Under the pieces are notes generated by a model that did not search any database, was not told the origin of the DNA, and saw only the letters and a program-made list of their open reading frames with translations. From the NCBI GenBank assembly GCA_037441705.1, contig JBBIRR010000009.1:20110-84109 (forward strand): a DNA stretch of 64,000 nucleotides. The letters are read 5' to 3'. The position numbers were made by a program, and so were the translations under genes. Below, piece by piece: positions 1-25,912 of this stretch; positions within the stretch are counted from its first letter, which is position 1; each line of letters starts with the position of its first letter. This stretch comes from Ignavibacteriales bacterium (GTDB taxonomy: Bacteria; Bacteroidota; Ignavibacteria; UBA10030; UBA6906).

Positions 1-318
1 GAGCATCGAATCATCAACCTGCTCAATCATCACCTCCACCTTTCCTCCGCAAATCAAACCCGTGTCCCCTACAGGATCATCAAGAGAGTATGTGAAGAAA
101 TGCGGCTTCGTCAGTCGTTCGTGCTCTACTCTCCAGACGATTTCTGCATCGAGACACCCACCGCCGACCGTTCCTATGCTGGCGAGCGGATCCGTGAAGC
201 GCACGATCATGCGCGATTGCATTGGGGCAGGAGTGGAGCCTGAGGTCTTGATGATGGTTGCCAGCGCCGCAGTCTTCTCCTCACGCAGCACTGTGCAAAG
301 CTCTCTGAAGATTCTCAT
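1..318 (-). CDS. xdhC: XdhC/CoxI family molybdo-enzyme maturation factor (5' part; runs off window edge)
   Basis: Not in ORF track. Manual translation from ATG 318: MRIFRELCTVLREEKTAALATIIKTSGSTP...GTVGGGCLDAE...GLICGGKVEVMIE, which carries the XdhC motifs. Follows mocA. Confidence 0.85.
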   Translation of the reverse strand, partial: MRIFRELCTVLREEKTAALATIIKTSGSTPAPMQSRMIVRFTDPLASIGTVGGGCLDAEIVWRVEHERLTKPHFFTYSLDDPVGDTGLICGGKVEVMIEQVDDSML

Positions 319-889
319 AATCTGCTACCGTATCAATATTCCGTATAACTCCGCTGTCCGGGCAGGGGACTTCCACCACGCTATCCCGATGTTGCCGGAC
401 AACAGCACGCGCGCCGATGGAAAGCGGCGCCTGTTTCAACTCTTGAAACAAAGTGGAAGGAAAGATTACAGGATGACCACGCTTCCCTTCAAACGTCGGC
501 AGCACGAGAGCGGGTTGGTGAACGAGGAAACTTTCTACCAACGCATGGACGGTTCCGGCTGTAACCAACGGGTGATCAACGGGGTGGACGATGACGGCGC
601 TCGATTCTCCTCGCTCAGCTTCGGCAATGCCAACGATAAGCGACGAAAGTTGACCCCGCAGATAATCATGATTGACGACCACCGTGACATTCAAGTCCTT
701 GATCTCCTCCCGCACATCATCAGCATGTGCGCCGAGTACGACGACAATGCGGGTGATGGCAGGATGGTTCAACGCCGCAATAATCCGTCGGATGAATGTC
801 TGCTTTCCAATCCTCAGCAGCGCCTTCGGGCGTCCCATTCGCTTCGACTCACCTGCGGCGAGGATGATGCCGGTAATCATGACGCTCAA
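281..889 (-). CDS. mocA: Molybdenum cofactor cytidylyltransferase (MocA/YgfJ-like NTP transferase)
   Basis: ILAAGESKRMGRPKALL, PVDHP and GHPVIF motifs; next to an XDH-family enzyme. Confidence 0.85.
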   Translation of the reverse strand: MSVMITGIILAAGESKRMGRPKALLRIGKQTFIRRIIAALNHPAITRIVVVLGAHADDVREEIKDLNVTVVVNHDYLRGQLSSLIVGIAEAERGESSAVIVHPVDHPLVTAGTVHALVESFLVHQPALVLPTFEGKRGHPVIFPSTLFQELKQAPLSIGARAVVRQHRDSVVEVPCPDSGVIRNIDTVADYENLQRALHSAA

Positions 890-1893
890 GAACTTATCAA
901 TTCAGCGAGGACTTTCCGCAAGAGTACCTTTGTCATCCTTCTTCGATAGCTCACAGTCTCCCCTATATTCGGAAGGGGCATGACATCTGCGGCCGCATGC
1001 TCAGCAGCATCTTCAATTCGATCGTCCGTCGGATGTTTTCCCTCCAGCACCAGCTCCGCCTCGTGCATTCTGAGCGGGGCGCTGGCCACAGCACCGATGA
1101 GAATGCGGAGATTCCGCAACGTGCCGTCTCCCTTCCTCTGGAAGGCAACGCCGACGTTCACAAGTGGATAGTCTATGGAACTGCGCTGCCGAAGCTTGCG
1201 ATGCGCGGCGCGGAGTCCCGCCGGTGGCTCCGGCAGAAGTACCTCGGCGAGAATCTCTCCCGGCTTGAGTGCGAGATGGTGCACACCATCTTGTGTGTAG
1301 AACTCGGCAAGCGGCATCGTACGCTCGCCTGCTGCACTGACCAGGCGCACAGAAGCGTTTAGCGCGATGAGTAATGGCGCGGTGTCCGAACTGAAAACTG
1401 CCGAGCAGACCGAGCGACCTGGTGCGGCATGACAGATGTCGTGACCGTCTCCTCCGTTGAGACGCAGCTTCAAACACCCGCCAAGGGCAATCCGCCACGA
1501 CTCGGATTCGTTATAGTAGTAGCAGCGCGTATCAAGACACAGATTGCCTCCGAGTGTCGCGCTGTTGCGAATGGCAGGTGACGCGACACTCTTTGCAGCG
1601 TTGGCGAGAGACGGATACGAGCCTCGTACTTCCGGCGAGCTTGCTATTTCCGCCAGCGTGCACATCGCTCCGATGGTGAGTCCGCCCTCTGCGCTCACCG
1701 AGATGCGACGTAGCTCCTTCATTCTTCCCAACCACACGAGCCGCTTTGGCGCATGCAATCCTTGTTTGAGGTTGGGAATGAGATCTGTCCCGCCTGCGAG
1801 GGTTTTGGTCTCGCCGTTCGAGTTAACCAGCGTCTCAATAAGCTCAGGAATAGACGCGGGCGCGAGCACATCAAGTTCCGGAAGTCGTATCAT
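886..1893 (-). CDS. hcrB: 4-hydroxybenzoyl-CoA reductase beta (FAD/[4Fe-4S]) subunit
   Basis: AGGTDL and ATLGGNL FAD motifs, plus the Cys insertion CLDTRC...C...C...C typical of HcrB. Confidence 0.85.
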   Translation of the reverse strand: MIRLPELDVLAPASIPELIETLVNSNGETKTLAGGTDLIPNLKQGLHAPKRLVWLGRMKELRRISVSAEGGLTIGAMCTLAEIASSPEVRGSYPSLANAAKSVASPAIRNSATLGGNLCLDTRCYYYNESESWRIALGGCLKLRLNGGDGHDICHAAPGRSVCSAVFSSDTAPLLIALNASVRLVSAAGERTMPLAEFYTQDGVHHLALKPGEILAEVLLPEPPAGLRAAHRKLRQRSSIDYPLVNVGVAFQRKGDGTLRNLRILIGAVASAPLRMHEAELVLEGKHPTDDRIEDAAEHAAADVMPLPNIGETVSYRRRMTKVLLRKVLAELISS

Positions 1894-4694
1894 TTCGCCC
1901 CCACCTCCAGTTCGGGTTTCTTCACTCGAAGAGCCTTCAGGATGTCGTCCGGAGTGAACGGAACAGAGCTCATCCGCACGCCGATGGCGTCATAGATTGC
2001 ATTGGCAATAGCCGGCGGAACGGCGAGCAGCGGACCTTCACCGGCTTCCTTCGCACCGAGCGGCCCTTCGGGATCGTTACTCTCGACGATAAAAACCTCG
2101 ATCGGCGGCGTATCTAACGCGGTGGGAGTCTTGTACTCAAGAAGCGACGCGGCTCGGAGCAGACCGCCGGGTGTGGTTTTCGTCGCGCGTGTGTACTCCA
2201 TGTTCTCAAACAGCGCCTCGCCAATCCCCATATACACGCATCCTTGAATCTGTCCTTCGACCAACGGTTTGTTGATAGCCTTACCGCAATCGTGCGCCGA
2301 CCAAACGTTGTGAATGGTGATGTGCCCGGTTTCCTCATCGACGCTCAGTTCCACCGCGTGTGCTGTAAAAGAGTATGATGGAGAAGGGCCTGCGCCTGCC
2401 CCCTTGTACGTGCCGCCTAACTTCGGGGGCGTGTAGTAACCAACCGCCGAGAGCGTGCCGAACTTCGCTTCGGCAAGTCGTGTTGCCTCGATGAAGCTGA
2501 GCTGCATCTCCGGATCGCGGGTGTAGATGACTCGACCGTTCAGGATTGCCAGGTCCTCGGTCCGCGTTTGGAGTTGTTCAGCGACCGCTTCAAGCAGCTT
2601 CTGCTTCAGTTCCCTCGCAGCCATGAGCACGGCGTTACCCGCCATGAACGTCACACGACTCGAATAGCTTCCGAGATCAACCGGCGTGAGGTGCGTATCA
2701 GCCTCGACAACTCTCACGCTCTGAAGCTCGATGCCCAGCGTTCGTGCAACGATTGTGGCAAGAACGGTGTTCGATCCCTGGCCGATATCCGACGACCCGC
2801 AGAAGACCATCACGCCGCCGCCGCGATCAATCTTGACGATGGCGCCCGAGTGAGGCAGTCCGAGCCAGTTGATTTCCTTCCCCGCGCCGCTGATGTAGGC
2901 GCTTGCCGCGAGTCCGATCCCCCGCCCACGCGGAAGCTTGCCGCGCTTTGCGCGCCAACCCGATGCTTCCATCACCTTCTCGATACACTCCTTCACACCG
3001 CAACTCGTAATGCGCAGGGAGTTGATGGTGAGCGAATTCTGCTCGACGAGATTCTTCAAACGAAGTTCTGCAGGATCCATGCCGATCGCCTCTGCAATGC
3101 GGTCGAGATGCACCTCGAACGCGAAGCGGGGCTGTGGCGCGCCGTGTCCTCGCTTCGGGCCAGCAGGCGGTTTGTTGGTATACAGGCGCCGGCTCTCGAA
3201 CTTGTAGTGTGGGACTTTGTACGGCATCGTGAGAAACTGCCCGCTGTAATACGATGTGACCACCCCGTAGCTGCCGTACGCTCCACCATCCAGCCAGCCT
3301 TTGTACTGAATGGCCGTGATCGTTCCGTCGTTCTTCACGCCGGTCTTCACCCACATCTTTGTTGCATGACGGCCGCGATGGGAGTAGAAGACTTCTTCAC
3401 GCGTGTAGGTGATTTTCACGGGGCGTCCCGTCTTGATCGAAAGCCACGCGGCGCAGAACTCCAGCGCAAACGGCTCCGACTTCCCGCCAAACCCTCCACC
3501 AAGCTGCGGCTTGATGACGCGGATGTGACTCGCCGGCATGTCCAGCACCTTTGCCAAGGTCCGATGGACGTAATGTGGAGTCTGAGTAGCAGACCAGAGC
3601 GTGAGGTGGCCGTTCCTGAAATCTCCGTTCTCTCTCGCCGGCTCGAACGACGCAAGCGCGGCGTGCGGTTCGAGCATTGCGTGCGTGCTTGCATCGTAGA
3701 AGAACTCGTCCTCTCGAACGTAGTCTGCTTCGGCAAAGCCTTCTTCCACATTTCCAAACTCAAGCTCCACGTGCTTGGCGGTATTGTCCGGATACCTGGT
3801 CTCTTCGTGAATCTTCGGAAGATCGGATCGGAGCGCATCTTTGATTGAAAGAATAACAGGAAGAAGTTCGTACTTCACCTCGATCAACCTGATCGCTTCC
3901 TGCGCGATGCGTTCACTTGTGGCCGCAACGGCAGCCACGCCATCCCCCACATAGCGCACTTTGTCAATACACAACGCCGTCTCATCCTGACTTGACGGAA
4001 GGATGCCGTATTTCGTCGGCAGGTCTTTTCCCGTCATGACGGCAACGACGCCCGGGAGCTTTTCTGCTCTTGACGTGTCGATGGAAAGGATACGTGCATG
4101 CGCGTGAGGACTGCGGAGAATTTTGGCGAAGAGCATGCGCGGGAGCGAGAGATCATCCGTGTACTTCGCTGCGCCGGTTACCTGTCCCACGGCATCCACC
4201 TTAATGCCCTGCTTCTCACACGCCCCTGCGCTTCGGTGGCCCTCGCATTGCACTGCTTCGATGATCTTTGTGTAGCCTGTGCAACGGCAGAGATTGCCGG
4301 AAAGTCTTTCGCGGATTTCTTCCTCCGTCAGCTTGCCGCCTTCGTCCATAAGCGACTTTGAAGTCAGGATCATCCCCGGGGTGCAGAAACCACATTGCAA
4401 GGCCGCATGATCAATGAATGATCGTTGGATGGGGGAGAGCGTGCCATCTTTTGCTAGACCTTCGATTGTCTCGATCGCGCAGCCCTCAACAGTCACTGCC
4501 AGCGTAATGCACGAGAGAATCGGTTTCCCGTCGGCAAGCACGGTGCACGCGCCGCAATCGCCAAGGTCGCAGCCGATCTTCACGCCCGTGAGGCCGAGCT
4601 GTTCGCGCAGGACTTCGGCAAGCGTCCACTGCGGCTCGACGGCTACCTCGTGCCGCTCGCCGTTGACGGTGAGTGTAATGAGATGCTTTCCCAT
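1890..4694 (-). CDS. hcrA: Fused 4-hydroxybenzoyl-CoA reductase gamma ([2Fe-2S], HcrC) and alpha (molybdopterin, HcrA) subunits
   Basis: N-terminal GCDLGDCGACTV and QCGFCTPG...NLCRCTGY; C-terminal GGGFGGK, RGHGAPQ, GSYSSRVT and AKEAGEG; one uninterrupted 934-aa frame. Confidence 0.85.
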   Translation of the reverse strand: MGKHLITLTVNGERHEVAVEPQWTLAEVLREQLGLTGVKIGCDLGDCGACTVLADGKPILSCITLAVTVEGCAIETIEGLAKDGTLSPIQRSFIDHAALQCGFCTPGMILTSKSLMDEGGKLTEEEIRERLSGNLCRCTGYTKIIEAVQCEGHRSAGACEKQGIKVDAVGQVTGAAKYTDDLSLPRMLFAKILRSPHAHARILSIDTSRAEKLPGVVAVMTGKDLPTKYGILPSSQDETALCIDKVRYVGDGVAAVAATSERIAQEAIRLIEVKYELLPVILSIKDALRSDLPKIHEETRYPDNTAKHVELEFGNVEEGFAEADYVREDEFFYDASTHAMLEPHAALASFEPARENGDFRNGHLTLWSATQTPHYVHRTLAKVLDMPASHIRVIKPQLGGGFGGKSEPFALEFCAAWLSIKTGRPVKITYTREEVFYSHRGRHATKMWVKTGVKNDGTITAIQYKGWLDGGAYGSYGVVTSYYSGQFLTMPYKVPHYKFESRRLYTNKPPAGPKRGHGAPQPRFAFEVHLDRIAEAIGMDPAELRLKNLVEQNSLTINSLRITSCGVKECIEKVMEASGWRAKRGKLPRGRGIGLAASAYISGAGKEINWLGLPHSGAIVKIDRGGGVMVFCGSSDIGQGSNTVLATIVARTLGIELQSVRVVEADTHLTPVDLGSYSSRVTFMAGNAVLMAARELKQKLLEAVAEQLQTRTEDLAILNGRVIYTRDPEMQLSFIEATRLAEAKFGTLSAVGYYTPPKLGGTYKGAGAGPSPSYSFTAHAVELSVDEETGHITIHNVWSAHDCGKAINKPLVEGQIQGCVYMGIGEALFENMEYTRATKTTPGGLLRAASLLEYKTPTALDTPPIEVFIVESNDPEGPLGAKEAGEGPLLAVPPAIANAIYDAIGVRMSSVPFTPDDILKALRVKKPELEVGAK

Positions 4695-4708: not shown

Positions 4709-4872
4709 AAATCTCAAATCTCAATACCCAAATCGCAAACAAGTTCCAAAACACAGGACTCAAACGCCCTCGATTTCTCATGATGTTTCTCTCTACCATG
4801 ACGATACACGTTGAGATTTCAGATTTGACGATTGGAACTTGTTTGTAATTTGCCGTTTGTACATTGGGATTC
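4709..4872. repeat. Degenerate 7-nt-periodic palindromic intergenic element (copy 1, both arms)
   Basis: Left arm aaatctcaaatctc...CAAACAAGTTCCAA (4736-4749); its exact reverse complement TTGGAACTTGTTTG is at 4832-4845. Confidence 0.8.
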
Positions 4873-5460
4873 CAGACTCAGCTTTTTCCCTTTTTCAAAC
4901 GCTCGCAAATTCAAATCCAGAATTTTTGCATTCAGCGATTCCTTCATCACCGCCATCCAATGCTCATCGCCGATGCCGGTCTCATCAGCCATTGCGCCAA
5001 GCAAGACGGTGTTCGCTGCGCGGAAGTTGCCGAGTTGCGTTGCGACGGCGTTGGCATCAAAACACACAACACGGAAGCCCTTGCCGTTCAAGAACTCCTC
5101 GATGTTCTGAGGATACTCCACCGGCTTGTCGGTGAGCCGGGCCGGGACGCGGATCTCATCGTTGATGACTATCAGTCCGCCCTCGCGGACGTAGTGTGCC
5201 CAACGAAGTGCTTCGAGTTTCTCCAGCGCAAGCAGGATGTCCACTTCACCTGCGGGTGTGAGCGGTGAATAGACTTTTCGTGCGAACCGGACATGACTCA
5301 CCACGCTGCCGCCGCGCTGGGCCGCACCGTGCACCTCAGTCTTCTTCGCATCGAATCCCGCAGCGATTGCCGCACGCGCCGCAAGCTCGGAGACAAGCAG
5401 GATTCCCTGTCCGCCCACGCCGGCAAAGAGGAGGTTCTTTCCTGAACTCTTCTGGTTCAT
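4819..5460 (-). CDS. iorB: Indolepyruvate/aryl-2-oxoacid:ferredoxin oxidoreductase beta subunit
   Basis: AGVGGQGILL and EVHGAAQRGGSVVSHVRF; start moved to MNQKSS (5460) because the upstream extension lies in repeat DNA. Confidence 0.88.
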   Translation of the reverse strand: MNQKSSGKNLLFAGVGGQGILLVSELAARAAIAAGFDAKKTEVHGAAQRGGSVVSHVRFARKVYSPLTPAGEVDILLALEKLEALRWAHYVREGGLIVINDEIRVPARLTDKPVEYPQNIEEFLNGKGFRVVCFDANAVATQLGNFRAANTVLLGAMADETGIGDEHWMAVMKESLNAKILDLNLRAFEKGKKLSLESQCTNGKLQTSSNRQI

Positions 5461-5473
5461 TTTTCTATCTTGA

Positions 5474-5582
5474 AAAATCCCAAATTGCAAGAAACAAATG
5501 GCAAACAAACCCCAATTATCAAATCACAAGTGGCCAGTCAAATCCCAAATAAGCACCAAGAGTCAAGCTCGAAAAGCCAAAC
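5474..5582. repeat. Heptamer-periodic element (copy 2, two left arms in tandem)
   Basis: aaatcccaaattgcaagaaacaaatggcaaacaaaccccaa...aaatcccaaataagcaccaa. Confidence 0.7.
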
Positions 5583-5605
5583 ACGATGTAAGCAACAATC
5601 CCTTG

Positions 5606-5962
5606 TCACTGAACCACCCGATAGATCACCATCGCAACGCCGCAGACAAAGATGGTGGTGAATATTGCCTTGTTATTCTTCGCCAGCCATTTCGGCAAGA
5701 AGATATCAAAGTTGTCGTCCCTTGAAGTGGTGAAGCGGGCAGCCACCGGAGTCAGAGGACAGCTTCCGTTGAAGGCGAGAAGGACGATTCCTTCCAGCAC
5801 CACCAGTCCGATTGCATACCATACAAGGGCATCGATTCTGTTTCTGAGACCCGCATACACGACATAGCCGATCGCCATGACGAAGAACATCCATATCAAA
5901 GTGTGCAGTGACTTGACCAAGAGGAGTTTCTGGTCATTATTGAATGATCTATTACGCTTCAT
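5606..5962 (-). CDS. Small membrane protein (DUF2784-like, CPLT motif)
   Basis: Three hydrophobic segments, with H..IW, CPLTP and DNFDIFLP motifs. Confidence 0.6.
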   Translation of the reverse strand: MKRNRSFNNDQKLLLVKSLHTLIWMFFVMAIGYVVYAGLRNRIDALVWYAIGLVVLEGIVLLAFNGSCPLTPVAARFTTSRDDNFDIFLPKWLAKNNKAIFTTIFVCGVAMVIYRVVQ

Positions 5963-7733
5963 ACTCGATCCTTTGTACAGGTCGAATGGCCTCAAACGCG
6001 CACAGCTTCGCGCACAGATCGCAACCGACGCACCGTTCCTTCGAGATGTGTGGAATCGAGTCGAGACCTCCGATAGCCGGGCAGCCGATCTTCAGGCACA
6101 GGTCGCACTCTTCACACAGCTCGTCAATCACTTCGTACGGCACATGCGTCTTCGCTTTTTCTTCCGGAAGCAACACACACGGTCGCCGCGAGATGACAAC
6201 GGACGGCTCTCCGCAGTTCATTGCCTCCTTGATCGCTTTCTCGGTTGCCGTCAGGTCATACGGATCAATCACGCTGACGTGCTTCACACCGATGGCGCGA
6301 ATGAGTTCCTCGTAATTGATCGCGTACGTGTCCTCGTTCTTCACCGTCTTCCCCATGCCCGGATGCTGCTGGTGTCCCGTCATGCCGGTCGTGGAGTTGT
6401 CCATGAGGATGACAGTGGAGATGCCTTTATTAAAGACGATATCAATGAGCGGCGCGATGCCGCTGTGGAGGAATGTCGAATCGCCGATGACGGCAACGAG
6501 CTTCTTGCCGATCGTGGCTCGATGCACTTTCTCCATGCCGAACGCGTTGGCAACGCCGGCGCCCATGCAGAACGTCGTGTCGAGGGCGTTGAACGGATAG
6601 AGAGCGCCGAGAGTGTAGCAGCCGATGTCGCCCGTAACCACGGCCTTGAGTTTGTGCAGCACAAAGTAGACTCCGCTGTGCGGACAGCCGGGGCACATGA
6701 CCGGTGGGCGGGGCGGGATGGAGATTTCCGACTCAAACGACGCACGGCCATTGGTTCCAAGCAACGCGTGTCGGAGAATATCGGGCGAAAGCTCGAACGT
6801 GTTGGGGATGAGTTCCTTCCCGACGAGATTCATCACTCCGAAGGGGTTCTTCACCCCCATGATCCTGAGCTGCTCCTCGAGGAACGGCTCCAATTCTTCG
6901 ATGACATAAATCGTTTCGACGCCGTCGCAGAACGAATCAATGAGTTTCTTCGGGAGAGGATAGACCATGCCGAGCTTGAGAATCGAAGCCTGCGGGAAAA
7001 CTTCCTTCGCGTACTGATACGAGATGCCGCTTGTGATGATGCCGATCTTGCGTTGATTCCACTCGATCATATTGTGCGGGAAAGTCTCGGCGAACTCCTC
7101 TAACTTCTTCAGTCGTTCTTGGATGTTCTTCCTCCAACGCTTCCCGTGTATCGGCACGACGTGTTTTGCGGGATCGGATTTGTACTTCCGCGGCGGCTGG
7201 CGGTGTGGCTCATCGAACGTCACCACCGACTTCGAGTGCGACGTGCGAGTCGTGGTCCGCAGGAACACCGGCACATCGAACTGCTCGCTGATCTCAAACG
7301 CCAGCTTCACGAACTCCTTCGCTTCCTGGCTGTCGGAGGGTTCGAGCATCGGAATCTTGGCAAACTTCGCCAAGTAGCGGTTGTCCTGCTCGTTTTGGGA
7401 GGAGTGCATCCCCGGATCGTCTGCCGTGATGATGACAAAACCGCCATGCACGCCGGAGAACGGCGTGACCATGAGTGAGTCCAGCGCGACATTGACGCCC
7501 ACGTGCTTCATCGCAACCAGAGCGCGAGCACCGGCAAGACACGCACCATAGGCAACATCGAACGCCACCTTCTCGTTGGTGGACCATTCGACGTCAATGT
7601 CTTCGTAGCGGGCGAGGTTTTCGATGATCTCGGTGCTCGGCGTGCCCGGATAGCCCGCTGCGACGTGCACACCCGCTTCCCACGCACCTCGTGCGATGGC
7701 TTCGTTGCCGGAAACGAAATGGCTATTGCTCAT
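5952..7733 (-). CDS. iorA: Indolepyruvate/aryl-2-oxoacid:ferredoxin oxidoreductase alpha subunit
   Basis: SGNEAIARGA, YPGTPSTE, DDPGMHSSQNEQD, CPGCPH, GDIGCY, TPP motif GDSTF, and two C-terminal [4Fe-4S] motifs. Confidence 0.92.
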   Translation of the reverse strand: MSNSHFVSGNEAIARGAWEAGVHVAAGYPGTPSTEIIENLARYEDIDVEWSTNEKVAFDVAYGACLAGARALVAMKHVGVNVALDSLMVTPFSGVHGGFVIITADDPGMHSSQNEQDNRYLAKFAKIPMLEPSDSQEAKEFVKLAFEISEQFDVPVFLRTTTRTSHSKSVVTFDEPHRQPPRKYKSDPAKHVVPIHGKRWRKNIQERLKKLEEFAETFPHNMIEWNQRKIGIITSGISYQYAKEVFPQASILKLGMVYPLPKKLIDSFCDGVETIYVIEELEPFLEEQLRIMGVKNPFGVMNLVGKELIPNTFELSPDILRHALLGTNGRASFESEISIPPRPPVMCPGCPHSGVYFVLHKLKAVVTGDIGCYTLGALYPFNALDTTFCMGAGVANAFGMEKVHRATIGKKLVAVIGDSTFLHSGIAPLIDIVFNKGISTVILMDNSTTGMTGHQQHPGMGKTVKNEDTYAINYEELIRAIGVKHVSVIDPYDLTATEKAIKEAMNCGEPSVVISRRPCVLLPEEKAKTHVPYEVIDELCEECDLCLKIGCPAIGGLDSIPHISKERCVGCDLCAKLCAFEAIRPVQRIEYEA

Positions 7734-7746
7734 ATGGTTCATTGTG

Positions 7747-7885
7747 AAATTCCAAATATCAAATGCCAGGTTCCAAAGAAGCTCCAAGAATCAAGTTCCA
7801 AATTCAAAGAGGGTTCTTCGATGTCGACTTTTTCTTTTTGATATTTGGAACTTGTTTGTGATTTGGAGCTTGATGTTTGGAACTT
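7747..7885. repeat. Heptamer-periodic palindromic element (copy 3, both arms)
   Basis: aaattccaaatatcaaatgcc...caaagaagctccaa, followed by ttggaacttgtttgtgatttggagcttg. Confidence 0.8.
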
Positions 7886-18573: not shown

Positions 18574-19122
18574 CTACCATCGTACTTTGGGCGGCGGACT
18601 AACAAGATCCTCGTCGTGATGTCGTTCCCTTCTTTCCGCAATCCGCTTCCTGGCAAACTCCACCATCCCCCCGGCGTTGATGATTTGTTGAATGATTTCC
18701 GGGAAGGGCGGAGTCTTGTACGATTTTTTCTTTGTCACATTCGTAATGGTTCCAGTAGAGAGATCAACGCTGATTTCATCGCCGGTTGCGGCATCATCCA
18801 CTGCTTCAGGGGATTCGAGAATCGGAAGTCCGATGTTGATGGAGTTGCGGTAGAAGATGCGTGCGAACGATTTTGCGATGACACACGAAACACCGGCGCC
18901 TTTGATGGCTATCGGAGCGTTCTCGCGAGAACTCCCGCAGCCGAAGTTTCGTCCGGCAACGATGATGTCGCCTTTCTTCACCTTCTTCACAAACTCCGGA
19001 TCGAGATCTTCAAGCGCGTGCGGGGCAAGCAGTTCTTCCGTGAATGCCGTACAGTATCGTGCCGGAATAATGACGTCGGTGTCGATGTTGTCGCCGTATT
19101 TATGAACTCGCCCCTGCAGCAT
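18574..19122 (-). CDS. leuD: 3-isopropylmalate dehydratase/homoaconitase small subunit (LeuD/HacB type)
   Basis: [25 protein letters not shown] and [16 protein letters not shown]. Confidence 0.9.
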
Positions 19123-19210: not shown

Positions 19211-21520
19211 CTAGAGGGGATATCGCCTCCTGAAGTTTGGAAACGTCCCCTTCACCGCCGCCTCGAGTCCGATCAGCGCATCAGGATGCTCAAAGACCGG
19301 CCGTAGATGGTGCTCAAGCTCAAAGGCGGCGAGCGTCTTGTTGTCAACGCCGCTGATGAACCCTTCAAAGCCGCGCGCAATCAGATAGTCTGCCACGCAC
19401 ACCGCGTGCGGAGAGGCAGCCACCACGCGCCGCAGCGCTCTCGACGCGATTGCTTCAAGCTCGCCGGTGAATCCCACCTTCACGTGACCGCGAGCCTGAG
19501 CATAGAGTGTCGGCAGAAGATCAGCCTGATTGAACAGGTCACGGGCGACATGCAGCTCTTGCCGATCAGCCAGGGACAATCCTGTTTCCAACCGCTCGAA
19601 GGTGAGCGCGTCGATCTGTTTCCCTTCAATCATTCTGCCGCCGTTTTCGATGATGGCGTGAGCAATCACATCGGCTGCATCGTCGCGCCGATGCTGAGGA
19701 ACGACGACGTCGGCAAAACCCAGGTGATACAGAAGCTGCGGAGAAGACGTCGGGATGCCTCCTGCAAGCATGTAGTAGCGTGCAAGCGCAACGGCTAGCT
19801 CCGCATCGTTCGTCTTTTTGTAGATGACTTGCGGAAACGTGAGCGTACCGCGCAAACCGGGATAGATGCCGAGACGCGTTTCAGGAAGCGAGAAGGTCGT
19901 GCGATTGGTGATGAGAACGATCGCGTTCGGGTCGAGAGCAAACGCACATGCCACTTCAACCCCGCCGCCGAATGCCTGTCCATCCACGATCGCGATCTTC
20001 GGCTTGGACGTTCCTGTCATGACCTCGAAGATGACCTGCTGCCATTCTTCCGTGTCACGCTTGATGGCATCAAAATCCTGTGCCTTGATTCTCTCGATAA
20101 ACGTTGGAATGTGTGCCCCGGCAATAAAGGTTTTGATCGGCGCAGTATCGAAGATGATGACCTTGCAGTCGTCATCCCCGTTTGCCTCCTTGAATTGCTG
20201 CTTCAACTCGGCGAAGACCTCGTTGCTCATAGCGTTGGCAGCACGAGGATTTGAGAGTGTGATCCGGCGGACGGCGCCGTTGCGCTCATGCTCCGTGTAC
20301 ACCGTTGAGAGGCGGAACCGCCACGGCGTTGCCACACCCATCTCTTCTTTGAGGAGATTGCAGATGGGGAAATCCTGCTTGAACGTTTTTGCAAGCTCGG
20401 CGCGTTGCAGGATAATCTCATGCACCTTCTTCTTGCCGATCTTATTCATCAGCGTGAACGGTCCCTCTCGCCAGAGAAACGCATTTTGCGTCAGCAACTC
20501 GAGGTCTTCAATCGTAATCAATCCGGCATCAACCGTCTCCGTTGCCGTGAGAAAGCCGATGGCGAGAAAGCGGTTAGAAAGAGCCTCAATGGTTTGGGGT
20601 TCGGGGGTCGACGTTTGGGAGCTGCTGTCGTGAACCCAGCGGACTGTTGACTTGTCGGCTGCTGCGTTGTAGCACTCGATCAGCTGAACGTAATTCTGCC
20701 GGGGCGTGAAGAAGTTTCCATAGACGCTGAAGAGGGGATCATTCGGATTGGACGAATCCGAGAACGAACGCATGGAGTGGAGACCAACGGGGAGTCCGGT
20801 GACATCCATCAGCTCCAGAAAACCGACGGGGATGCCGTAGGCCTGCTTGCCCGCAGCTTCTACGGTCGCCACATCGAACCCTTCCTCTAACATTCGTGTG
20901 GCTTCAAGCAGCAGCGCAACGAAGATAATGTCAGCAACACCTCCTTTGCGGCTCCCGCGAATGTGTGTGGGGATTTTCCCGCCGAGCTTGAGGTACCTTC
21001 GCGCAAGCGCCTTGCTCTCTTCGGAGGCAGTCTCCGTACCCGCATACTCTCCGGCTCTGTTCTTGTGCGGAAGATAGAAGTAGTGCATCCACACGACTTT
21101 GTGGGGACGTTTGGTGACAGCAGCGAGAGTGTTCGTATCGAGCGAGGAGGAGTTTGATGCAAGAACAACGTGCGGAGCGGCAAGCGAGTCGAGGCAGCGG
21201 AAGATTTCCTGTTTGATGTCGAGCCGCTCGGTGGCTGCTTCGATCACGAGCTTGAGGTTCGATCCCTTGCAGGCTTCGCTGTAGCTGGTCGTGCCGATGA
21301 TTCGCTCGCGGATTGCTCGCACCTCGGCCGGCGAGAAGATCTTTCCTTTGGCGCGTTCAAGCTCATGCGCGATCGTCTGGAACCCGCGCTGGAGGATTTC
21401 GCCCGAGACATCCAACAAGCCCACGTGGAAGCCGCTCTGCGCGTACGTCTGCGCGAGACTTGCACCCATCGTGCCCGCGCCGACGATGAGAAGCTCTATG
21501 TTATTCCAGGACGTCTTCAT
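19211..21520 (-). CDS. Bifunctional 3-hydroxyacyl-CoA dehydrogenase (N-terminal) / enoyl-CoA hydratase (C-terminal)
   Basis: GAGTMG, IEAATE..K and SNSSS; C-terminal AFGGGVE and LPETRLGIYPG; start MKTSW at 21520. Confidence 0.8.
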   Translation of the reverse strand: MKTSWNNIELLIVGAGTMGASLAQTYAQSGFHVGLLDVSGEILQRGFQTIAHELERAKGKIFSPAEVRAIRERIIGTTSYSEACKGSNLKLVIEAATERLDIKQEIFRCLDSLAAPHVVLASNSSSLDTNTLAAVTKRPHKVVWMHYFYLPHKNRAGEYAGTETASEESKALARRYLKLGGKIPTHIRGSRKGGVADIIFVALLLEATRMLEEGFDVATVEAAGKQAYGIPVGFLELMDVTGLPVGLHSMRSFSDSSNPNDPLFSVYGNFFTPRQNYVQLIECYNAAADKSTVRWVHDSSSQTSTPEPQTIEALSNRFLAIGFLTATETVDAGLITIEDLELLTQNAFLWREGPFTLMNKIGKKKVHEIILQRAELAKTFKQDFPICNLLKEEMGVATPWRFRLSTVYTEHERNGAVRRITLSNPRAANAMSNEVFAELKQQFKEANGDDDCKVIIFDTAPIKTFIAGAHIPTFIERIKAQDFDAIKRDTEEWQQVIFEVMTGTSKPKIAIVDGQAFGGGVEVACAFALDPNAIVLITNRTTFSLPETRLGIYPGLRGTLTFPQVIYKKTNDAELAVALARYYMLAGGIPTSSPQLLYHLGFADVVVPQHRRDDAADVIAHAIIENGGRMIEGKQIDALTFERLETGLSLADRQELHVARDLFNQADLLPTLYAQARGHVKVGFTGELEAIASRALRRVVAASPHAVCVADYLIARGFEGFISGVDNKTLAAFELEHHLRPVFEHPDALIGLEAAVKGTFPNFRRRYPL

Positions 21521-21540
21521 GATGCTCAAGCTTCTGTGCC

Positions 21541-21688
21541 CAAGCTCCAATAATCAAGTTCCAAGTCCCAAAGAAATTCCAAATCCCAACTCTCCAGTCT
21601 CAACACCGAACCTGCTGGCGAGCACGGCTATTGGAAATTTGAACACTGGAGCTTCTTTGTGATTTGTCATTTGTGTTGCTGGAATTTC
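21541..21688. repeat. Heptamer-periodic palindromic element (copy 9, both arms)
   Basis: caagctccaataatcaagttccaagtcccaaagaaattccaaatcccaa, followed by ttggaaatttgaacactggagcttctttgtgatttgtcatttg. Confidence 0.8.
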
Positions 21689-21690
21689 TA

Positions 21691-22944
21691 TTACACGTAT
21701 CCTTCGACAATCAGCGCGCCGCCCTGACCGCCGCCAATGCATGCGCTGGCAAGGCCGAAACCGCCGAGCTTGAGCAGCGCAATCGTCATCCGTGCGCCGG
21801 TTGCACCGAGCGGATGCCCTAACGCAATCGCTCCGCCGTTCAGGTTCACTTTTGTTCGATCAAGGTCAAGCTCGCGCTCAACGGCGAGGTACTGTCCGCC
21901 GAACGCCTCGTTGATCTCAATGTGCTTCAGGTGTTTCCACGTAAGCCCGGCGCGCTTCAATGCAATTATTGATGCAGGGACGGGACCGATTCCCATGTAA
22001 TGCGGGTCGACGCCGGCAACGCCCCAGGAAATAAGCTCACCGATCGGCTCGACGCCCAACTCTTTTGCCTTGCGCGCAGTCGTCATGACAAGCGCCGCGG
22101 CACCATCCACAATGCCGGATGAGTTGCCGCCCGTGTGCACGCCGTCGGGTTTCACAGACGGAAGTTTCGCAAGAGCAGCGAGCGTTGTATCGGGACGGGG
22201 GTTTTCGTCGGTAGAAAGAATGCGCTCCTGTCTTCCTTCACGAATCACCACCGGCGTGATCTCTTTGCTGAGCCGGCAGCGTTCCTGTGCTTCCTTCGCC
22301 TTCATCTGTGACGACAGTGCGAACGCATCCACCTCCTCGCGCGTGATGCCGTACAGGCGAACGAGATTCTCGGCCGTCCCCATCATGTCGTTGTTGATAA
22401 AAGTATCGGTGAGTCCATCCTTGAAGAGGAACATCATTCGCGGCCCAAGCATGTACGGAAAGCCAAATGCCGCCCCGTACACAAGCATCGGGGATTGCGA
22501 GGTGCTTTCGTAGCCGCCAACGATCACAACCTCGGCCTCGCCGCCCAGCAGCTCCTTCGCTCCCTGCACAATCGCCTCGCCTCCCGACCAGCAGATGCGG
22601 TTCACGGTGAGAGCGGTAGAGAAGTGTGAGAGACCCGCCTTCAGCGCGACATGCCGTGCCCCATAGTGCGAGTCAATGCTCGTGTGCATGCCGTTGCCGA
22701 AGATGGCAGCGTCAATCACCTCGGTACGATCCGCGAGGCTTGCTTGTTCGATGGCCGCCCGCGCTGCCAGCACGCCGAGATCAATCGACGAAAAGTCTTT
22801 CAGGCTTCCGCCGACGCGACCGAATGGTGTGCGCGTCGCTGAAAGAAAAACGATGCGTTCGCCAGAGTTCCGCTTGAACCACGGTAGGCCGGCGGGTTTC
22901 TCCTCTTTCACATGATAGAGGATCGTGTCAATCTTCTTTCCCAT
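21691..22944 (-). CDS. Acetyl-CoA C-acyltransferase (thiolase)
   Basis: RTPFG, NRICWSG (catalytic Cys), NEAF, GHPLGATG and CIGGGQG. Confidence 0.9.
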   Translation of the reverse strand: MGKKIDTILYHVKEEKPAGLPWFKRNSGERIVFLSATRTPFGRVGGSLKDFSSIDLGVLAARAAIEQASLADRTEVIDAAIFGNGMHTSIDSHYGARHVALKAGLSHFSTALTVNRICWSGGEAIVQGAKELLGGEAEVVIVGGYESTSQSPMLVYGAAFGFPYMLGPRMMFLFKDGLTDTFINNDMMGTAENLVRLYGITREEVDAFALSSQMKAKEAQERCRLSKEITPVVIREGRQERILSTDENPRPDTTLAALAKLPSVKPDGVHTGGNSSGIVDGAAALVMTTARKAKELGVEPIGELISWGVAGVDPHYMGIGPVPASIIALKRAGLTWKHLKHIEINEAFGGQYLAVERELDLDRTKVNLNGGAIALGHPLGATGARMTIALLKLGGFGLASACIGGGQGGALIVEGYV

Positions 22945-23362
22945 TCATCGTCCGCCAGATGGTGTTGAGCGTATTGATGAATTCTGATTCTTGTTGTGGG
23001 GAAAATGATCTCATCGCGTCGCGGTTGATCACCTCAGCAATGGCACTTGCACTCTGCGCGAGAGCTTTCCCTTTGGGGGTAAGAAAAACATTGATGACGC
23101 GTCGGTCGCCGGCGACGCGGCGCCGTTCGACAAGCCCGTCGCGCTCCATCCGATCCACAATGCCGGTGATCGTCGGATTATCGAAGTAGAGTTTTTGTCC
23201 GAGCAGCGAGAGCGACGCTCCATCATGTTCACGCAGAGCTTCGAGCACGATGTACTGAGTCGCGGTGATGTTATGTTCGGAGAGTCGGGCTTCGAGCGCG
23301 CGCTTCATGCTGCGGGCCGCCCGCGCAAGAAGGAAGCCCACGCTCCCGTCGAGAGCGTTCAT
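22928..23362 (-). CDS. MarR family transcriptional regulator (BadR-like position)
   Basis: ITATQY, ITGIVDRMERDGLVER and DRR...LTPKG. Confidence 0.9.
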   Translation of the reverse strand: MNALDGSVGFLLARAARSMKRALEARLSEHNITATQYIVLEALREHDGASLSLLGQKLYFDNPTITGIVDRMERDGLVERRRVAGDRRVINVFLTPKGKALAQSASAIAEVINRDAMRSFSPQQESEFINTLNTIWRTMNGKED

Positions 23363-23518: not shown

Positions 23519-24781
23519 TCAGACCATCCTTCTCGGGTCGGTAATCACCCCGGCCACCGCCGACGCTGCCGCCACGGCCGGACTTGCGAGGAAGACTTTG
23601 CTTGTCGGGTGACCGTTGCGGCCCTTGAAGTTCCGGTTGGTGGTGTAGAGGCCCACTTCGTTCTCGGCGAGGATGCCCATGTGGCCGCCGATGCACGGGC
23701 CGCAGGTCGGCGGACTGATAGTTGCGCCCGCTTCAACGAATACCTTCAGCAACCCCTCGTCAATCATCTGCAAATACACTTGCTGCGTTGCAGGAATCAC
23801 AATCATGCGCACGTCGGGCGCGACTTCACGTCCGCGCAGGAGTTCAGCGGCGATGCGAAAATCCTCAATGCGTCCGTTGGTGCAGGAGCCGAGAACCACC
23901 TGATCGATCTTTATAGAATCAATTTGTGAGATCGGTTTAACGTTGCTCGGAAGATACGGAAGCGCTACTTGTGGCTCCAGATCGGTGACATCAATCTCCA
24001 TCACCTGTGCATACTCAGCGTCTGGGTCGGAGTGGTGGATGACATACGCGCGGTCACTACGGCCGCGGATGAACTCCAGCACCTTCTCATCCGCCTCGGT
24101 GATGCCGCCTTTCGCTCCGGCTTCAATCGCCATGTTGCAGAGCGTGAACCGATCCGCAAGCGGAAGCTGCTCCACAACCTCTCCGGTAAACTCGATCGAG
24201 GCATAGATTGCGCCCTCGACTCCGAGGATGCCGATCGTGTGGAGAATCAAATCCTTCCCTCCAACAAATTCTCCCAGTTTGCCTTTGTAAACGATCTTGA
24301 TTGACGGCGGCACTTTGAACCAATTCTCCCCTAACGCCCACGATGCGGCCATGTCGGTACTGCCAACGCCTGTGGCAAATGCACCGAGCGCCCCGTAGGT
24401 GCACGTGTGGGAGTCCGCACCGATGACGAGGTCGCCCGGCATCACAAGCCCGCTCTCCGGCACGATGCAGTGACAGAGACCCGAGCGACCGACTTCGAAA
24501 TAACTCTCGATACCGTACGTCTGGGCGAACTCGCGCATCGTTTTGGAGAGACCGGCCGCCTGAATGTCCTTCGCCGGCACAAAGTGGTCGTTGACGAGGG
24601 CAATCTTCGTCCGATCGAACACATCATCGGCGCCGATCCTGTTGAACACTTCGACCGCAAGTGGGACGGTAACATCCGTCCCCATGACAAGATCAATGCG
24701 GGCGTAGACAAGTTCGCCGGGCCGCACAACATCACGATCCGCGTGCGCGGCGAAGATTTTTTCGGTGATGGTCATTGGCAT
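23519..24781 (-). CDS. leuC: 3-isopropylmalate dehydratase/homoaconitase large subunit (LeuC/HacA type)
   Basis: DHFVP, GADSHTCTYGA, GSCTNGR, CGPCIGGHMG and TTNRNFKGRNG. Confidence 0.92.
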   Translation of the reverse strand: MPMTITEKIFAAHADRDVVRPGELVYARIDLVMGTDVTVPLAVEVFNRIGADDVFDRTKIALVNDHFVPAKDIQAAGLSKTMREFAQTYGIESYFEVGRSGLCHCIVPESGLVMPGDLVIGADSHTCTYGALGAFATGVGSTDMAASWALGENWFKVPPSIKIVYKGKLGEFVGGKDLILHTIGILGVEGAIYASIEFTGEVVEQLPLADRFTLCNMAIEAGAKGGITEADEKVLEFIRGRSDRAYVIHHSDPDAEYAQVMEIDVTDLEPQVALPYLPSNVKPISQIDSIKIDQVVLGSCTNGRIEDFRIAAELLRGREVAPDVRMIVIPATQQVYLQMIDEGLLKVFVEAGATISPPTCGPCIGGHMGILAENEVGLYTTNRNFKGRNGHPTSKVFLASPAVAAASAVAGVITDPRRMV

Positions 24782-24826
24782 GGTTGAGCCTCCATATTAT
24801 AGACTGTTACGCTCGGCGAGGTTGAG

Positions 24827-25912
24827 TTAATCGCTGGCGGCACCTGACTTCAACACCTCCAGTACAGCCTCGCCGGCTTCACGCGTTCCCAGTGTTCCGC
24901 CGAGATCGCTTGTTGTCTTGTTCTCGCGAACGGCCTGCCGCACCGCCTGTTCCACAAGTTCGCCTTCCGCTGTGAAGCCAAGGTGCTCCAGCATCAGCGC
25001 GGCAGTGAGGATAGCACCGAAAGGATTTGCAACATTCTTGCCGGCGTATTTGGGTGCCGAGCCATGCACCGGCTCGAACATGCACACGCCGTTCGGGTTG
25101 ATGTTGCCCGATGCTGCCATGCCCAGCCCGCCTTGCAGTTGCGCGCCGATATCCGTGATGATGTCGCCGAACATGTTGTTGGTGACAATCACCTGAAATT
25201 GCTCCGGTCGTTTGATCATCTGCATCGCCAGTGCATCTATGAACCAGTGCTCTTTCTCGATATCGGGGTACTGCTCGCCGACCTCCTGAAAGACGCGATA
25301 CCACAGGTCGCCCTCGAAGCGCAGCGCATTGTTCTTATCGCTCATCGTCACCTTCGAGTGACCGTGTGTTCTGGCATACTCGAATGCGTAGCGGATGATC
25401 CGCTCGACGCCTTTGTACGTGTTCACGCTTTCCTGCACCGCAACTTCGTCTTTGGTTCCCTTCTTGAAGATGCCTCCCATGCCGACGTACAGCCCTTCGG
25501 TGTTTTCACGGAAGACAACGAAGTTCACATCTTCCACACTCTTTCCTTTCAACGGACAGAGTTTTTCATCGAACAGCTTCACCGGACGGAAGTTGACATA
25601 CAGGTCGAGGCCGAACCGCATACCGAAGAGAATATCCCGCGCATGAGCCATGTCGGGAATACGCGGGTCGCCGAGCGCGCCGAGAAAGATCGCGGCGTAG
25701 TTCTCGCGGAAATCCTCAAGCTGTTCTTTGGGCAGCGAGATGCCGCTGCGCAAATACTTCTCTGCGCCGAAATCAAATTGCACAAGCTCAAGATCGAGCG
25801 CGCGGCTTGACGCGATGAACTCAAGGACCTTCACCGCTTCGCGAGTGACTTCAAGACCGATGCCGTCGCCGGGAATCACGGCAATCTTATGCCGAGAAGA
25901 AGGTATCATCAT
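24827..25912 (-). CDS. leuB: Isocitrate/isopropylmalate family decarboxylating dehydrogenase
   Basis: PGDGIG.EV, RENTEGLY, NMFGDIITD, FEPVHGSAP and ANPFGAIL. Confidence 0.88.
   Translation of the reverse strand: MMIPSSRHKIAVIPGDGIGLEVTREAVKVLEFIASSRALDLELVQFDFGAEKYLRSGISLPKEQLEDFRENYAAIFLGALGDPRIPDMAHARDILFGMRFGLDLYVNFRPVKLFDEKLCPLKGKSVEDVNFVVFRENTEGLYVGMGGIFKKGTKDEVAVQESVNTYKGVERIIRYAFEYARTHGHSKVTMSDKNNALRFEGDLWYRVFQEVGEQYPDIEKEHWFIDALAMQMIKRPEQFQVIVTNNMFGDIITDIGAQLQGGLGMAASGNINPNGVCMFEPVHGSAPKYAGKNVANPFGAILTAALMLEHLGFTAEGELVEQAVRQAVRENKTTSDLGGTLGTREAGEAVLEVLKSGAASD

Follow-up and report, generated by a model that had tools for sequence, protein, structure and literature searches.

A leucine-type chain-elongation gene set within a conserved benzoyl-CoA island of Ignavibacteriales

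The island and its leucine-type genes

The window analyzed here is a 64,000-nucleotide stretch from an Ignavibacteriales bacterium (contig JBBIRR010000009.1 of assembly GCA_037441705.1), whose 3.83-Mb genome, rated 100% complete, we call G000; the window corresponds to G000:C9:20110-84109. A 25.9-kb block at its start contains 23 genes, all on the minus strand, in which genes of the benzoyl-CoA reductase (BCR) and 4-hydroxybenzoyl-CoA reductase (HCR) types are interleaved with homologs of leuA, leuB, leuC and leuD and with iorA and iorB. Genes were called from the listing of open reading frames (ORFs) together with Pfam and NCBIfam scans of the window proteins, and bit scores were compared with the curated cut-offs. 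The order is leuB-leuC, followed by marR-thiolase-fadB-like-leuD-leuA-like-oah-SDR-DUF2889-dch-like-bcrC-HNH-like-bcrB-bcrA-bcrD-had-like-iorA-iorB-hcrCA-hcrB-mocA-xdhC. The original prediction had reported this co-oriented block and its gene order, an overlap between the leuA-like and oah reading frames and a distance of about 4.4 kb between leuD and leuC, all of which are confirmed here; the overlap of the leuA-like stop with the oah start is the ATGA at 17207-17210, and leuD and leuC are 4397 bases apart. Near marR there is a promoter-like site (23495-23466), which is a consensus match only. The block is best explained as one accessory catabolic island of Ignavibacteriales, with the known anaerobic benzoyl-CoA pathway as its core. 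Its genes are as follows, in window coordinates.

24827-25912, minus strand: leuB-type 3-alkylmalate dehydrogenase (NF002898, 423 bits, cut-off 393); starts the island and marks its outer boundary
23519-24781, minus strand: leuC-type dehydratase large subunit (TIGR02083, 649 bits, cut-off 611)
22928-23362, minus strand: marR, MarR-family regulator (PF01047); heads the second transcription unit
21691-22944, minus strand: thiolase (TIGR01930, 369 bits, cut-off 241)
19211-21550, minus strand: FadB-like fused 3-hydroxyacyl-CoA dehydrogenase/enoyl-CoA hydratase, dehydrogenase domain first (PF02737, PF00725, PF00378)
18574-19122, minus strand: leuD-type dehydratase small subunit (TIGR02084, 245.5 bits, cut-off 245.85; TIGR02087, 218 bits, cut-off 109)
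17207-18460, minus strand: putative LeuA-like 2-oxoacid:acetyl-CoA condensing enzyme, 417 residues (PF00682; NF002085, 208 bits, cut-off 517)
16083-17210, minus strand: oah, 6-oxocyclohex-1-ene-1-carbonyl-CoA hydrolase (TIGR03200, 574 bits, cut-off 464)
15228-15980, minus strand: short-chain dehydrogenase/reductase (SDR), FabG-like, candidate 3-hydroxyacyl-CoA dehydrogenase (PF13561, PF00106)
14632-15093, minus strand: DUF2889 protein with no assigned role (PF11136)
13865-14728, minus strand: crotonase, candidate dienoyl-CoA hydratase, Dch (PF00378; TIGR03189, 173 bits, under the cut-off of 292)
12612-13787, minus strand: bcrC (BcrC model, 371 bits, cut-off 421)
12020-12598, minus strand: HNH-like ORF (HNH_5 Pfam score 25.4, under the cut-off of 27.5)
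10746-12005, minus strand: bcrB (BcrB model, 465 bits, cut-off 487)
9762-10586, minus strand: bcrA, 274 residues (BcrA model, 235 bits, cut-off 578)
8914-9765, minus strand: bcrD (BcrD model, 174 bits, cut-off 313)
7889-8917, minus strand: had-like Zn-dependent dehydrogenase (TIGR03201, 277 bits, cut-off 339)
5952-7787, minus strand: iorA (TIGR03336, 707 bits, cut-off 651)
4819-5508, minus strand: iorB (NF005322, 221 bits, cut-off 237)
1890-4694, minus strand: fused hcrC-hcrA (alpha, TIGR03194, 923 bits, cut-off 995; gamma, 178 bits, cut-off 258)
886-1893, minus strand: hcrB (beta, TIGR03195, 290 bits, cut-off 405)
281-889, minus strand: mocA, molybdenum-cofactor maturation gene for HCR (TIGR03310, 149 bits, under the cut-off; PF12804)
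1-318, minus strand: xdhC, molybdenum-cofactor maturation gene for HCR (PF02625); last gene of the island, continuing past the window start to G000:C9:19336

We followed conservation of the island across 61 genomes of the order, those of G000 and 60 relatives. One and the same set of seven genomes (G000, G003, G030, G041, G046, G049 and G057), representing three families, carries close orthologs of the LeuA-like protein (83-94% identity), Oah (79-90%) and the window-type LeuC (75-91%); LeuC orthologs of at least 75% identity are confined to these seven, and no genome carries this Leu set without BCR genes, or the converse. In tblastn searches of the window proteins against the fetched regions, the gene order from leuB to hcrB/mocA is kept in all islands and in L013, from an Ignavibacteriaceae metagenome-assembled genome, and the marR position and the DUF2889 gene are also conserved in all islands. 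Furthermore, leuB is always the last island gene, with orthologs of 82-91% identity ending the island in G041, G057, G049, G046 and G003, and the window flanking genes used as queries were not found beside the islands of other genomes. In the window's own genome, glycosidase-like genes, a SulP/DauA transporter and a mer operon lie past xdhC, and housekeeping genes including miaA, pcm, cdaA, folP and suf lie upstream of leuB; we therefore delimit the island as leuB to xdhC. Among the other 54 genomes, 19 have a canonical pair of long LeuA-type genes and 35 have no LeuA-type gene, the latter including nine of the ten other genomes of the same genus, which lack the island. We considered whether the island had been inserted into a housekeeping leu operon, and rejected this because of those nine genomes and because the island, leuB included, lies in different flanks. 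Together, these observations support the view that the Leu module belongs integrally to the aromatic-catabolic island and is conserved with it.

Some island content is lineage-specific. In G041 and G057 (the f6 islands), an acyl-CoA dehydrogenase gene separates iorA from had; other inserts are an M1-peptidase-like ORF, HNH ORFs and proteins with type IX secretion system (T9SS) tails. The HNH-like ORF between bcrC and bcrB is found in G000 and G003 only, and the G041 copy lies between had and bcrD (L152:12645-13796), which suggests repeated colonization of differing island sites by a mobile HNH gene; the G000 ORF has a weak IscB-like match (22 bits). The 444-bp gap between iorA and iorB (5508-5952) has a 129-residue ORF with no Pfam match (5606-5995) as its sole content, and at this position G041 has a 473-residue M1-peptidase-like ORF instead. 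Within 13865-15093, the longest ORFs of the Dch-like crotonase and the DUF2889 gene share 97 bases; as the crotonase domain begins near residue 35-43, translation of this gene probably starts further downstream. About 10 kb past the island, G000:C9:614-8723 holds katG, an oxyR-like regulator divergent from it, a multicopper oxidase and arsR-merTP-merA genes for mercury resistance.

Oah passes its equivalog cut-off, and its family was matched in none of 14 control genomes. The BCR genes comprise HGD-D-type BcrB and BcrC (TIGR02260, TIGR02263) and two BcrAD_BadFG ATPases; all four score under their equivalog cut-offs, and both ATPase subunits pass the CoA_E_activ domain model. From these matches, bcrCBAD probably encodes an ATP-dependent class I benzoyl-CoA reductase of the Thauera-like kind. 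The alpha, beta and gamma subunits of HCR, with gamma and alpha fused, are all under the 4-hydroxybenzoyl-CoA reductase equivalog cut-offs, although these are their best matches. Across the island, cut-offs are narrowly missed by LeuD, IorB, BcrB and HcrA and more widely by BcrC, Had, HcrB and HcrC, whose best matches they still are. In the Thauera structure, the FAD subunit of 4-hydroxybenzoyl-CoA reductase carries an additional Cys-rich loop for a [4Fe-4S] cluster. In HcrB, the FAD_binding_5 match covers 216 residues against a 170-position profile, indicating that the FAD domain has an insert of about 45 residues rich in Cys, and the extra stretch contains Cys119, 124, 140, 154 and 163. We read the HCR-type genes as encoding a 4-hydroxybenzoyl-CoA-reductase-like molybdenum enzyme. 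A homolog of the Had-like protein (74% identity) occurs in L046, a locus of another phylum, together with an acyl-CoA dehydrogenase, a 2-oxoacid oxidoreductase and a LeuA-like gene.

No CoA ligase was found in the island, and the best benzoate-CoA ligase match in G000 reaches 221 bits, under the cut-off of 375. In an evenly sampled set of 401 genomes of the phylum, Oah scores above its cut-off in seven, of which four are new (G109, G211, G237 and G293; loci L171-L177) and belong to a different BCR cluster type whose Oah is 52-55% identical. This type contains bcrCBAD-like, oah, fadB-like, dch and had genes, and also a thiolase gene, which was not seen on the 5.7-kb contig of G109; G211, G237 and G293 also have HCR-like genes, a second BcrB/BcrD-like pair and an AMP-ligase-like gene, so that a ligase-like gene is present in three of the four clusters. 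No LeuA-like, LeuBCD or Ior gene was found within about 20 kb on each side (for G109, on the 5.7-kb contig only). Most of these clusters without Leu and Ior genes thus have a ligase-like gene, whereas the island has Leu and Ior genes and no ligase, a pattern that in few and related cases is suggestive only.

The LeuA-like protein, its partners and its family

The "leuA" of the island is not a LeuA by curated tests. The protein scores under every NCBIfam cut-off for LeuA, homocitrate synthase and citramalate synthase, including 157 bits against TIGR00973 (cut-off 599) and 174 bits against the homocitrate synthase model TIGR02146 (cut-off 414); its match to NF002085 spans profile positions 12-379 of 504, and the Pfam scan gave no PF08502-type match, the C-terminal leucine-binding regulatory domain, in the 417 residues. 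The closest solved structures are Sulfolobus homocitrate synthase 6ktq (E 4.5e-33) and the 2-isopropylmalate synthase (IPMS) 3rmj, at about 30% identity. We dropped Re-citrate synthase as an identity for the gene, since G000 has two ordinary citrate synthases and the LeuC and LeuB of the island are isopropylmalate-type.

Five positions are described as substrate-selecting in the part of PMC12961565 consulted: they read Leu/Glu/Ser/Asn/Glu in IPMS, His/Arg/Thr/Ser/His in homocitrate synthase and Ala/Asp/Ala/Met/Ser in the benzylmalate synthase HphA, where A73 is the first and M186 the fourth, and the first-position residue is named as important for HphA substrate specificity. We aligned 18 members of the LeuA-like family with eight canonical long LeuA-type genes of related genomes. 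The mapping of the positions is validated by five of the eight canonical genes, in which they are exactly Leu/Glu/Ser/Asn/Glu; the remaining three read Ser/(Ile or Val)/Asp/Val/Gln, which we take to be citramalate-synthase-like. The window protein reads A96/M160/V162/V190/H250 and differs from IPMS at all five positions, and all 18 aligned family members read Ala/Met/Val/(Val or Cys)/His. It agrees with homocitrate synthase at the fifth position only (His250), and the His/Arg/Thr/Ser residues for the distal carboxylate are absent. A96 and V190 match the HphA pattern (A73 and the hydrophobic M186), whereas positions 2, 3 and 5 differ, HphA being known here from its published residues alone. The predicted pocket is thus hydrophobic, without the carboxylate-binding residues of homocitrate synthase and with an Ala in common with HphA. 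In addition, the protein has RDGLQ where the canonical LeuA of relatives has RDGEQ.

Among the partner proteins, LeuC and LeuB score above their equivalog cut-offs, and LeuD falls 0.35 bits short and passes the LeuD/DmdB subfamily model, results that indicate family membership only. The LeuD specificity loop reads ARYCTAF, with no Arg; we take this loop to contribute to specificity, with an Arg there presumably marking homoaconitase small subunits. IorA is above the equivalog cut-off for indolepyruvate/arylpyruvate:ferredoxin oxidoreductase and IorB is just under its own, so that IorAB is probably an indolepyruvate-type (arylpyruvate) ferredoxin oxidoreductase. By the Pfam and NCBIfam scans, it is the sole 2-oxoacid:ferredoxin oxidoreductase of the island, where no other ferredoxin-reducing system is encoded.

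The Leu-type genes of the island are not accompanied by ilvC, which was found in 20 of the 61 genomes, namely the 19 with canonical long LeuA and, as a fragment, G005. It was not found in any of the seven island genomes, G000 included, by a search that was positive in 14 of 14 control genomes. Because ilvC is absent from all seven, the module is not the end of a canonical ilv-leu pathway; this supports the view that it cannot be ordinary leucine synthesis, with salvage of valine-derived 2-oxoisovalerate possible. Furthermore, since 35 of the 61 genomes lack any LeuA-type gene, leucine auxotrophy appears to be tolerated in this order. The original prediction had placed the Leu-type genes with the aromatic cluster, and this assignment holds up: rather than being unconserved neighbors or the genome's ordinary leucine genes, they are linked to it in seven of seven island genomes, ilvC was not found in those genomes, and two further independent cases of HCR/BCR linkage exist (L087 and L029).

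The sole other HMGL-family gene in G000 is HMG-CoA-lyase-like and lies on contig C2, in a second Leu-like cluster (C2:10470-21736; L148:471-11737). This cluster begins with a three-subunit VorB-type 2-oxoacid oxidoreductase and contains two ORFs without assignment, a homoisocitrate/isopropylmalate-dehydrogenase-like gene, the HMG-CoA-lyase-like gene (281 bits, cut-off 246), a 314-residue ORF without assignment, a CaiB-type CoA-transferase, a LeuC-like gene (hacA_fam) and a LeuD/DmdB-like small subunit. The C2-type LeuC-like gene is 45-48% identical to the window LeuC and stands beside a weak HMG-CoA-lyase-like match in at least five relatives without LeuA and ilvC (G001, G006, G009, G026 and G033).

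In a wider search, 596 of 600 candidate stretches were confirmed as related loci, and the best 80 of the 596, at 55-64% identity, were kept; their sources include Acidobacteriota, Gemmatimonadota, Zixibacteria, Chloroflexota and Methylomirabilota. Neighbors within 6 kb of the LeuA-like gene (leuA') were counted by tblastn in these best 80 loci, for families with a query protein only: M20 peptidase in 32, aldehyde dehydrogenase in 17, crotonase in 16, LeuB in 12, HADH in 10 and thiolase in 9, and, more rarely, LeuD in 7, LeuC in 6, acyl-CoA dehydrogenase (ACAD) in 6, 2-oxoacid oxidoreductase (OFOR) in 4, and BCR, Oah and HCR in 2 each. Individual arrangements include ACAD-OFOR subunits-leuA'-leuC (L035), Had-like-ACAD-OFOR-leuA' (L046), leuD-leuA'-ACAD-iorA (L037), HADH-crotonase-leuA'-leuC-leuD (L079), leuB-leuC-leuD-crotonase-leuA' (L024, L034) and thiolase-HADH-crotonase-leuA' (L039, L041, L081), and the gene sits with leuBCD in Gemmatimonadota, Chloroflexota and Zixibacteria. 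In L046 (622-9974), a POR/VOR-like oxidoreductase, into which a GltD-like NAD(P)-binding subunit is inserted and upstream of which an 843-residue Fe-S/flavin protein is encoded, lies directly before the LeuA-like gene and after the Had-like and ACAD genes; it resembles the NADH-dependent phenylglyoxylate dehydrogenase PadE/G/I (121, 274 and 247 bits, all under cut-off). A maximum-likelihood tree from a quick search (87 rows) unites the LeuA-like copies of the island in one clade (SH-aLRT 100), and linkage to BCR, HCR or Oah needs three origins: the island, the acidobacterial L087, in which hcrCA-hcrB-leuA' faces SDR-bcrDABC-dch-oah-had, and L029.

Ten leuA'-bearing genomes of other phyla were checked at the genome level. 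Four have ilvC, two of them with a canonical LeuA too (G064, G451); Oah is present in two (G065 and, cut by the contig end, G454) and BoxB in two (G064, G065). No HMGL-family gene other than the LeuA-like one was found in G061, G062, G063, G450 and G452. G061, G062, G063 and G450 are large (3.7-9.3 Mb), free-living-type Gemmatimonadota or Acidobacteriota in which ilvC was not found, a pattern that hints at widespread branched-chain amino-acid auxotrophy or at an unrecognized pathway. The same four genomes weaken the idea that the family is the housekeeping IPMS of Acidobacteriota and Gemmatimonadota, which may still hold for G452 and G453.

A possible route from aromatic amino acids and its alternatives

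We tentatively propose, at less than even confidence, that the Leu-type genes act together with IorAB as a feeder in which an arylpyruvate would be lengthened, decarboxylated and beta-oxidized to (4-hydroxy)benzoyl-CoA. Every substrate and reaction of this route is one that we infer. Transamination of Phe or Tyr would give the arylpyruvate, which the LeuA-like enzyme would condense with acetyl-CoA to 2-benzylmalate; LeuCD would isomerize this to 3-benzylmalate, and LeuB would convert it to 2-oxo-4-arylbutanoate, CO2 and NADH. IorAB would then yield 3-arylpropionyl-CoA, CO2 and reduced ferredoxin, an acyl-CoA dehydrogenase would form the cinnamoyl-type enoyl-CoA, and hydration and oxidation by the FadB-like, SDR or Had-like enzyme, followed by the thiolase, would release (4-hydroxy)benzoyl-CoA and give back the acetyl-CoA. 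HCR would take off the 4-hydroxyl in the tyrosine branch, and BCR would reduce the ring. Such a route would need neither a CoA ligase nor the oxygen-independent alpha-hydroxylation of phenylacetyl-CoA, and the two ferredoxin electrons gained per ring would equal the consumption by BCR. Its first three steps have a precedent, since the Hph pathway does the same chemistry, and the remainder would be ordinary beta-oxidation.

The proposed feeder would account for the interleaving of leuD and leuA' with the thiolase and fadB genes under MarR, for the type of the Ior enzyme and for HCR, as well as for the missing ligase, the missing ilvC and the source of low-potential electrons. It is supported by the IOR-type IorA, the Ala in common with HphA, the three independent HCR/BCR linkages and the acyl-CoA dehydrogenase of the f6 islands, as well as by the conserved linkage in the seven island genomes and by the beta-oxidation, oxidoreductase and Leu-type genes that neighbor the family in other phyla. 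Homologation followed by beta-oxidation fits the evidence best, as far as gene content and residues can indicate, and differs in mechanism from the three models originally put forward.

Several observations weigh against this route. The G000 island has no acyl-CoA dehydrogenase of its own (four are encoded elsewhere in the genome) and no aromatic aminotransferase, and IorAB could compete directly for arylpyruvate. LeuC and LeuB score above the cut-offs of isopropylmalate-type equivalogs. BCR clusters that lack Leu genes have thiolase and fadB-like genes too, so that the lower pathway alone accounts for these. No LeuBCD or Ior gene was found on the 31-kb contig of L087, though its LeuA-like gene adjoins HCR. 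G452 and G453 have ilvC and the LeuA-like gene as the only LeuA-type gene found, and it may serve as IPMS there. Finally, neither Oah nor BoxB was found in seven of the ten leuA'-bearing genomes of other phyla, despite the identical pocket signature across the family; a tie to benzoyl-CoA is thus not general to the family.

This last point bears on an alternative that we regard as unlikely, in which the same chemistry of lengthening, decarboxylation and beta-oxidation acts on bulky aliphatic 2-oxoacids, for example leucine's 2-oxoisocaproate, to give isobutyryl-CoA and acetyl-CoA, and the placement in the island reflects co-regulated amino-acid catabolism. Indeed, the pocket signature does not vary with context, G061, G062, G063, G450 and G452 showed no HMG-CoA lyase that would serve the classical leucine route, and M20 peptidase and aldehyde dehydrogenase are the commonest neighbors counted in the best 80 loci. 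An aliphatic substrate would, however, leave the three independent HCR/BCR linkages, the missing ligase and the arylpyruvate-type IOR of the island unexplained, and G000 does have an HMG-CoA-lyase-like gene elsewhere.

To about the same degree, we doubt that an atypical short IPMS with LeuCD and LeuB turns 2-oxoisovalerate, from imported valine or from isobutyryl-CoA via VOR, into 2-oxoisocaproate for leucine synthesis, with ilvBCD lost and the genes merely traveling together. The isopropylmalate-type scores of LeuC and LeuB, with LeuD 0.35 bits short, are in agreement with this, as are the VorB-type oxidoreductase of G000, the presence of the LeuA-like gene beside ilvC in G452 and G453 and its company of leuBCD in three other phyla. 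Orphan LeuBCD have also been read as leucine synthesis: in the part of PMC6338057 consulted, leucine genes "from 2-isopropylmalate" are interpreted in this way for a related lineage considered incapable of valine and isoleucine synthesis. Against leucine synthesis, all five IPMS pocket residues are replaced, whereas they are kept in five of the eight canonical long LeuA-type genes of relatives; leuD and leuA' lie within a MarR-led catabolic operon, with leuA' translationally coupled to oah; the Leu set and the BCR genes are never apart in the 61 genomes; and auxotrophy is tolerated, as the 35 genomes without a LeuA-type gene indicate.

In Thauera, low-potential ferredoxin is supplied by KorAB. 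The original prediction had offered, by analogy, that the Leu module builds a 2-oxoacid from acetyl-CoA, which IorAB oxidizes only to supply ferredoxin to BCR and HCR, and we now consider this quite improbable. IorAB is the only 2-oxoacid:ferredoxin oxidoreductase of the island, and the Leu and Ior genes co-occur, so that ferredoxin regeneration is possible for IorAB itself; by stoichiometric reasoning, however, no closed cycle regenerates the starting 2-oxoacid without spending the ferredoxin gained. G000 also has two citrate synthases, aconitase and isocitrate-dehydrogenase-like genes for the usual route, no oxidoreductase lies close to any of the phylum's four other BCR clusters, and the missing CoA ligase is left unexplained.

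The two other models originally proposed, shikimate-independent Phe/Tyr synthesis from (4-hydroxy)benzoyl-CoA via arylglyoxylate and ring building from 2-oxoglutarate via 2-oxoadipate and glutaryl-CoA, now appear highly improbable: for the former, the failure to find prephenate dehydratase in four of the seven island genomes (G041, G046, G049, G057) is a small opening, but, of the aro/pheA genes whose presence had been queried, prephenate dehydratase is present in G000, G003 and G030 and chorismate synthase in all seven, and the operon is catabolic, and for the latter, the distal-carboxylate residues of homocitrate synthase are absent, the LeuD loop has no Arg and LeuC and LeuB are isopropylmalate-type. 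We know of no precedent for Oah, Had, Dch and an ATP-hydrolyzing BCR run backwards. A reversed Leu module, from arylpyruvate to arylglyoxylate, was rejected on thermodynamic reasoning, the thioester-hydrolyzing synthase step being the obstacle.

To our knowledge, anaerobic conversion of Phe/Tyr to benzoyl-CoA is known only by way of a membrane molybdenum enzyme that alpha-oxidizes arylacetyl-CoA, or of phenylpropanoid beta-oxidation of plant-derived acids. In the titles and opening parts of abstracts covered (supplementary files excluded), we found no description of leu-type genes in benzoyl-CoA clusters or of a catabolic benzylmalate route, and the part of PMC8099898 consulted does not mention the island. 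More doubtful than the feeder itself, yet conceivable, is that the LeuA-like family (A/M/V/(V or C)/H; about 415 residues; named just "LeuA family protein") marks an unrecognized catabolic strategy across Ignavibacteriota, Acidobacteriota, Gemmatimonadota, Zixibacteria, Chloroflexota and Methylomirabilota. Non-beta-oxidizable 2-oxoacids of amino acids would be lengthened, decarboxylated with ferredoxin and beta-oxidized, and in anaerobes with BCR and HCR this would amount to a ligase-free, oxygen-independent conversion of Phe/Tyr to benzoyl-CoA that pays for its own ferredoxin. If true, the catabolic use of leucine-type chain elongation would represent a new metabolic logic, account for the "orphan" leu genes of bacteria unable to make branched-chain amino acids, correct the automatic 2-isopropylmalate synthase annotation of a widespread family and change how aromatic-degrading potential is read in subsurface and sediment metagenomes. 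Even with wrong substrates, the conserved coupling of a Leu module to BCR and HCR in genomes without ilvC needs explaining.

Comparison with known systems

Thauera-type benzoyl-CoA clusters consist of bcrCBAD, dch, had, oah, hcrCAB, korAB and fdx. The island resembles them in its HGD-D-type BcrB/C with two ATPases, Oah, crotonase, Zn-dehydrogenase, three-component HCR-like enzyme and in-cluster 2-oxoacid:ferredoxin oxidoreductase. In contrast to the Thauera type, it contains no CoA ligase or ferredoxin gene, has IorAB instead of KorAB, a fused hcrC-hcrA and a short BcrA (274 residues), and is interleaved with the LeuA-like/LeuCD/LeuB set.

HphA, HphCD and HphB homologate phenylalanine and tyrosine in cyanobacteria, according to the part of PMC12961565 consulted. 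The island set shares with them an Ala at the first and a hydrophobic residue at the fourth pocket position, LeuCD/LeuB-type partners and, as proposed here, the addition of one CH2 to an arylpyruvate. The Hph pathway is biosynthetic, making homo-amino acids for peptides, whereas the island context is catabolic, and positions 2, 3 and 5 read M/V/H in the island protein against D/A/S in HphA, a comparison with the published residues only. Like canonical LeuA, the island protein belongs to the HMGL-like TIM-barrel family PF00682 and has partners that pass LeuC and LeuB models; unlike canonical LeuA and the ilv-leu pathway, it has no regulatory domain, carries RDGLQ and five changed pocket residues, and occurs in island genomes without ilvC.

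In the anaerobic phenylalanine/phenylacetate route, the side chain is shortened by alpha-oxidation through PadBCD (phenylacetyl-CoA:acceptor oxidoreductase) and PadEFGHI (phenylglyoxylate oxidoreductase). The route proposed for the island would likewise bring arylpyruvate or arylacetate carbon to (4-hydroxy)benzoyl-CoA without oxygen and with a 2-oxoacid oxidoreductase. Unlike the Pad route, however, it would lengthen the side chain and then proceed by ordinary beta-oxidation.

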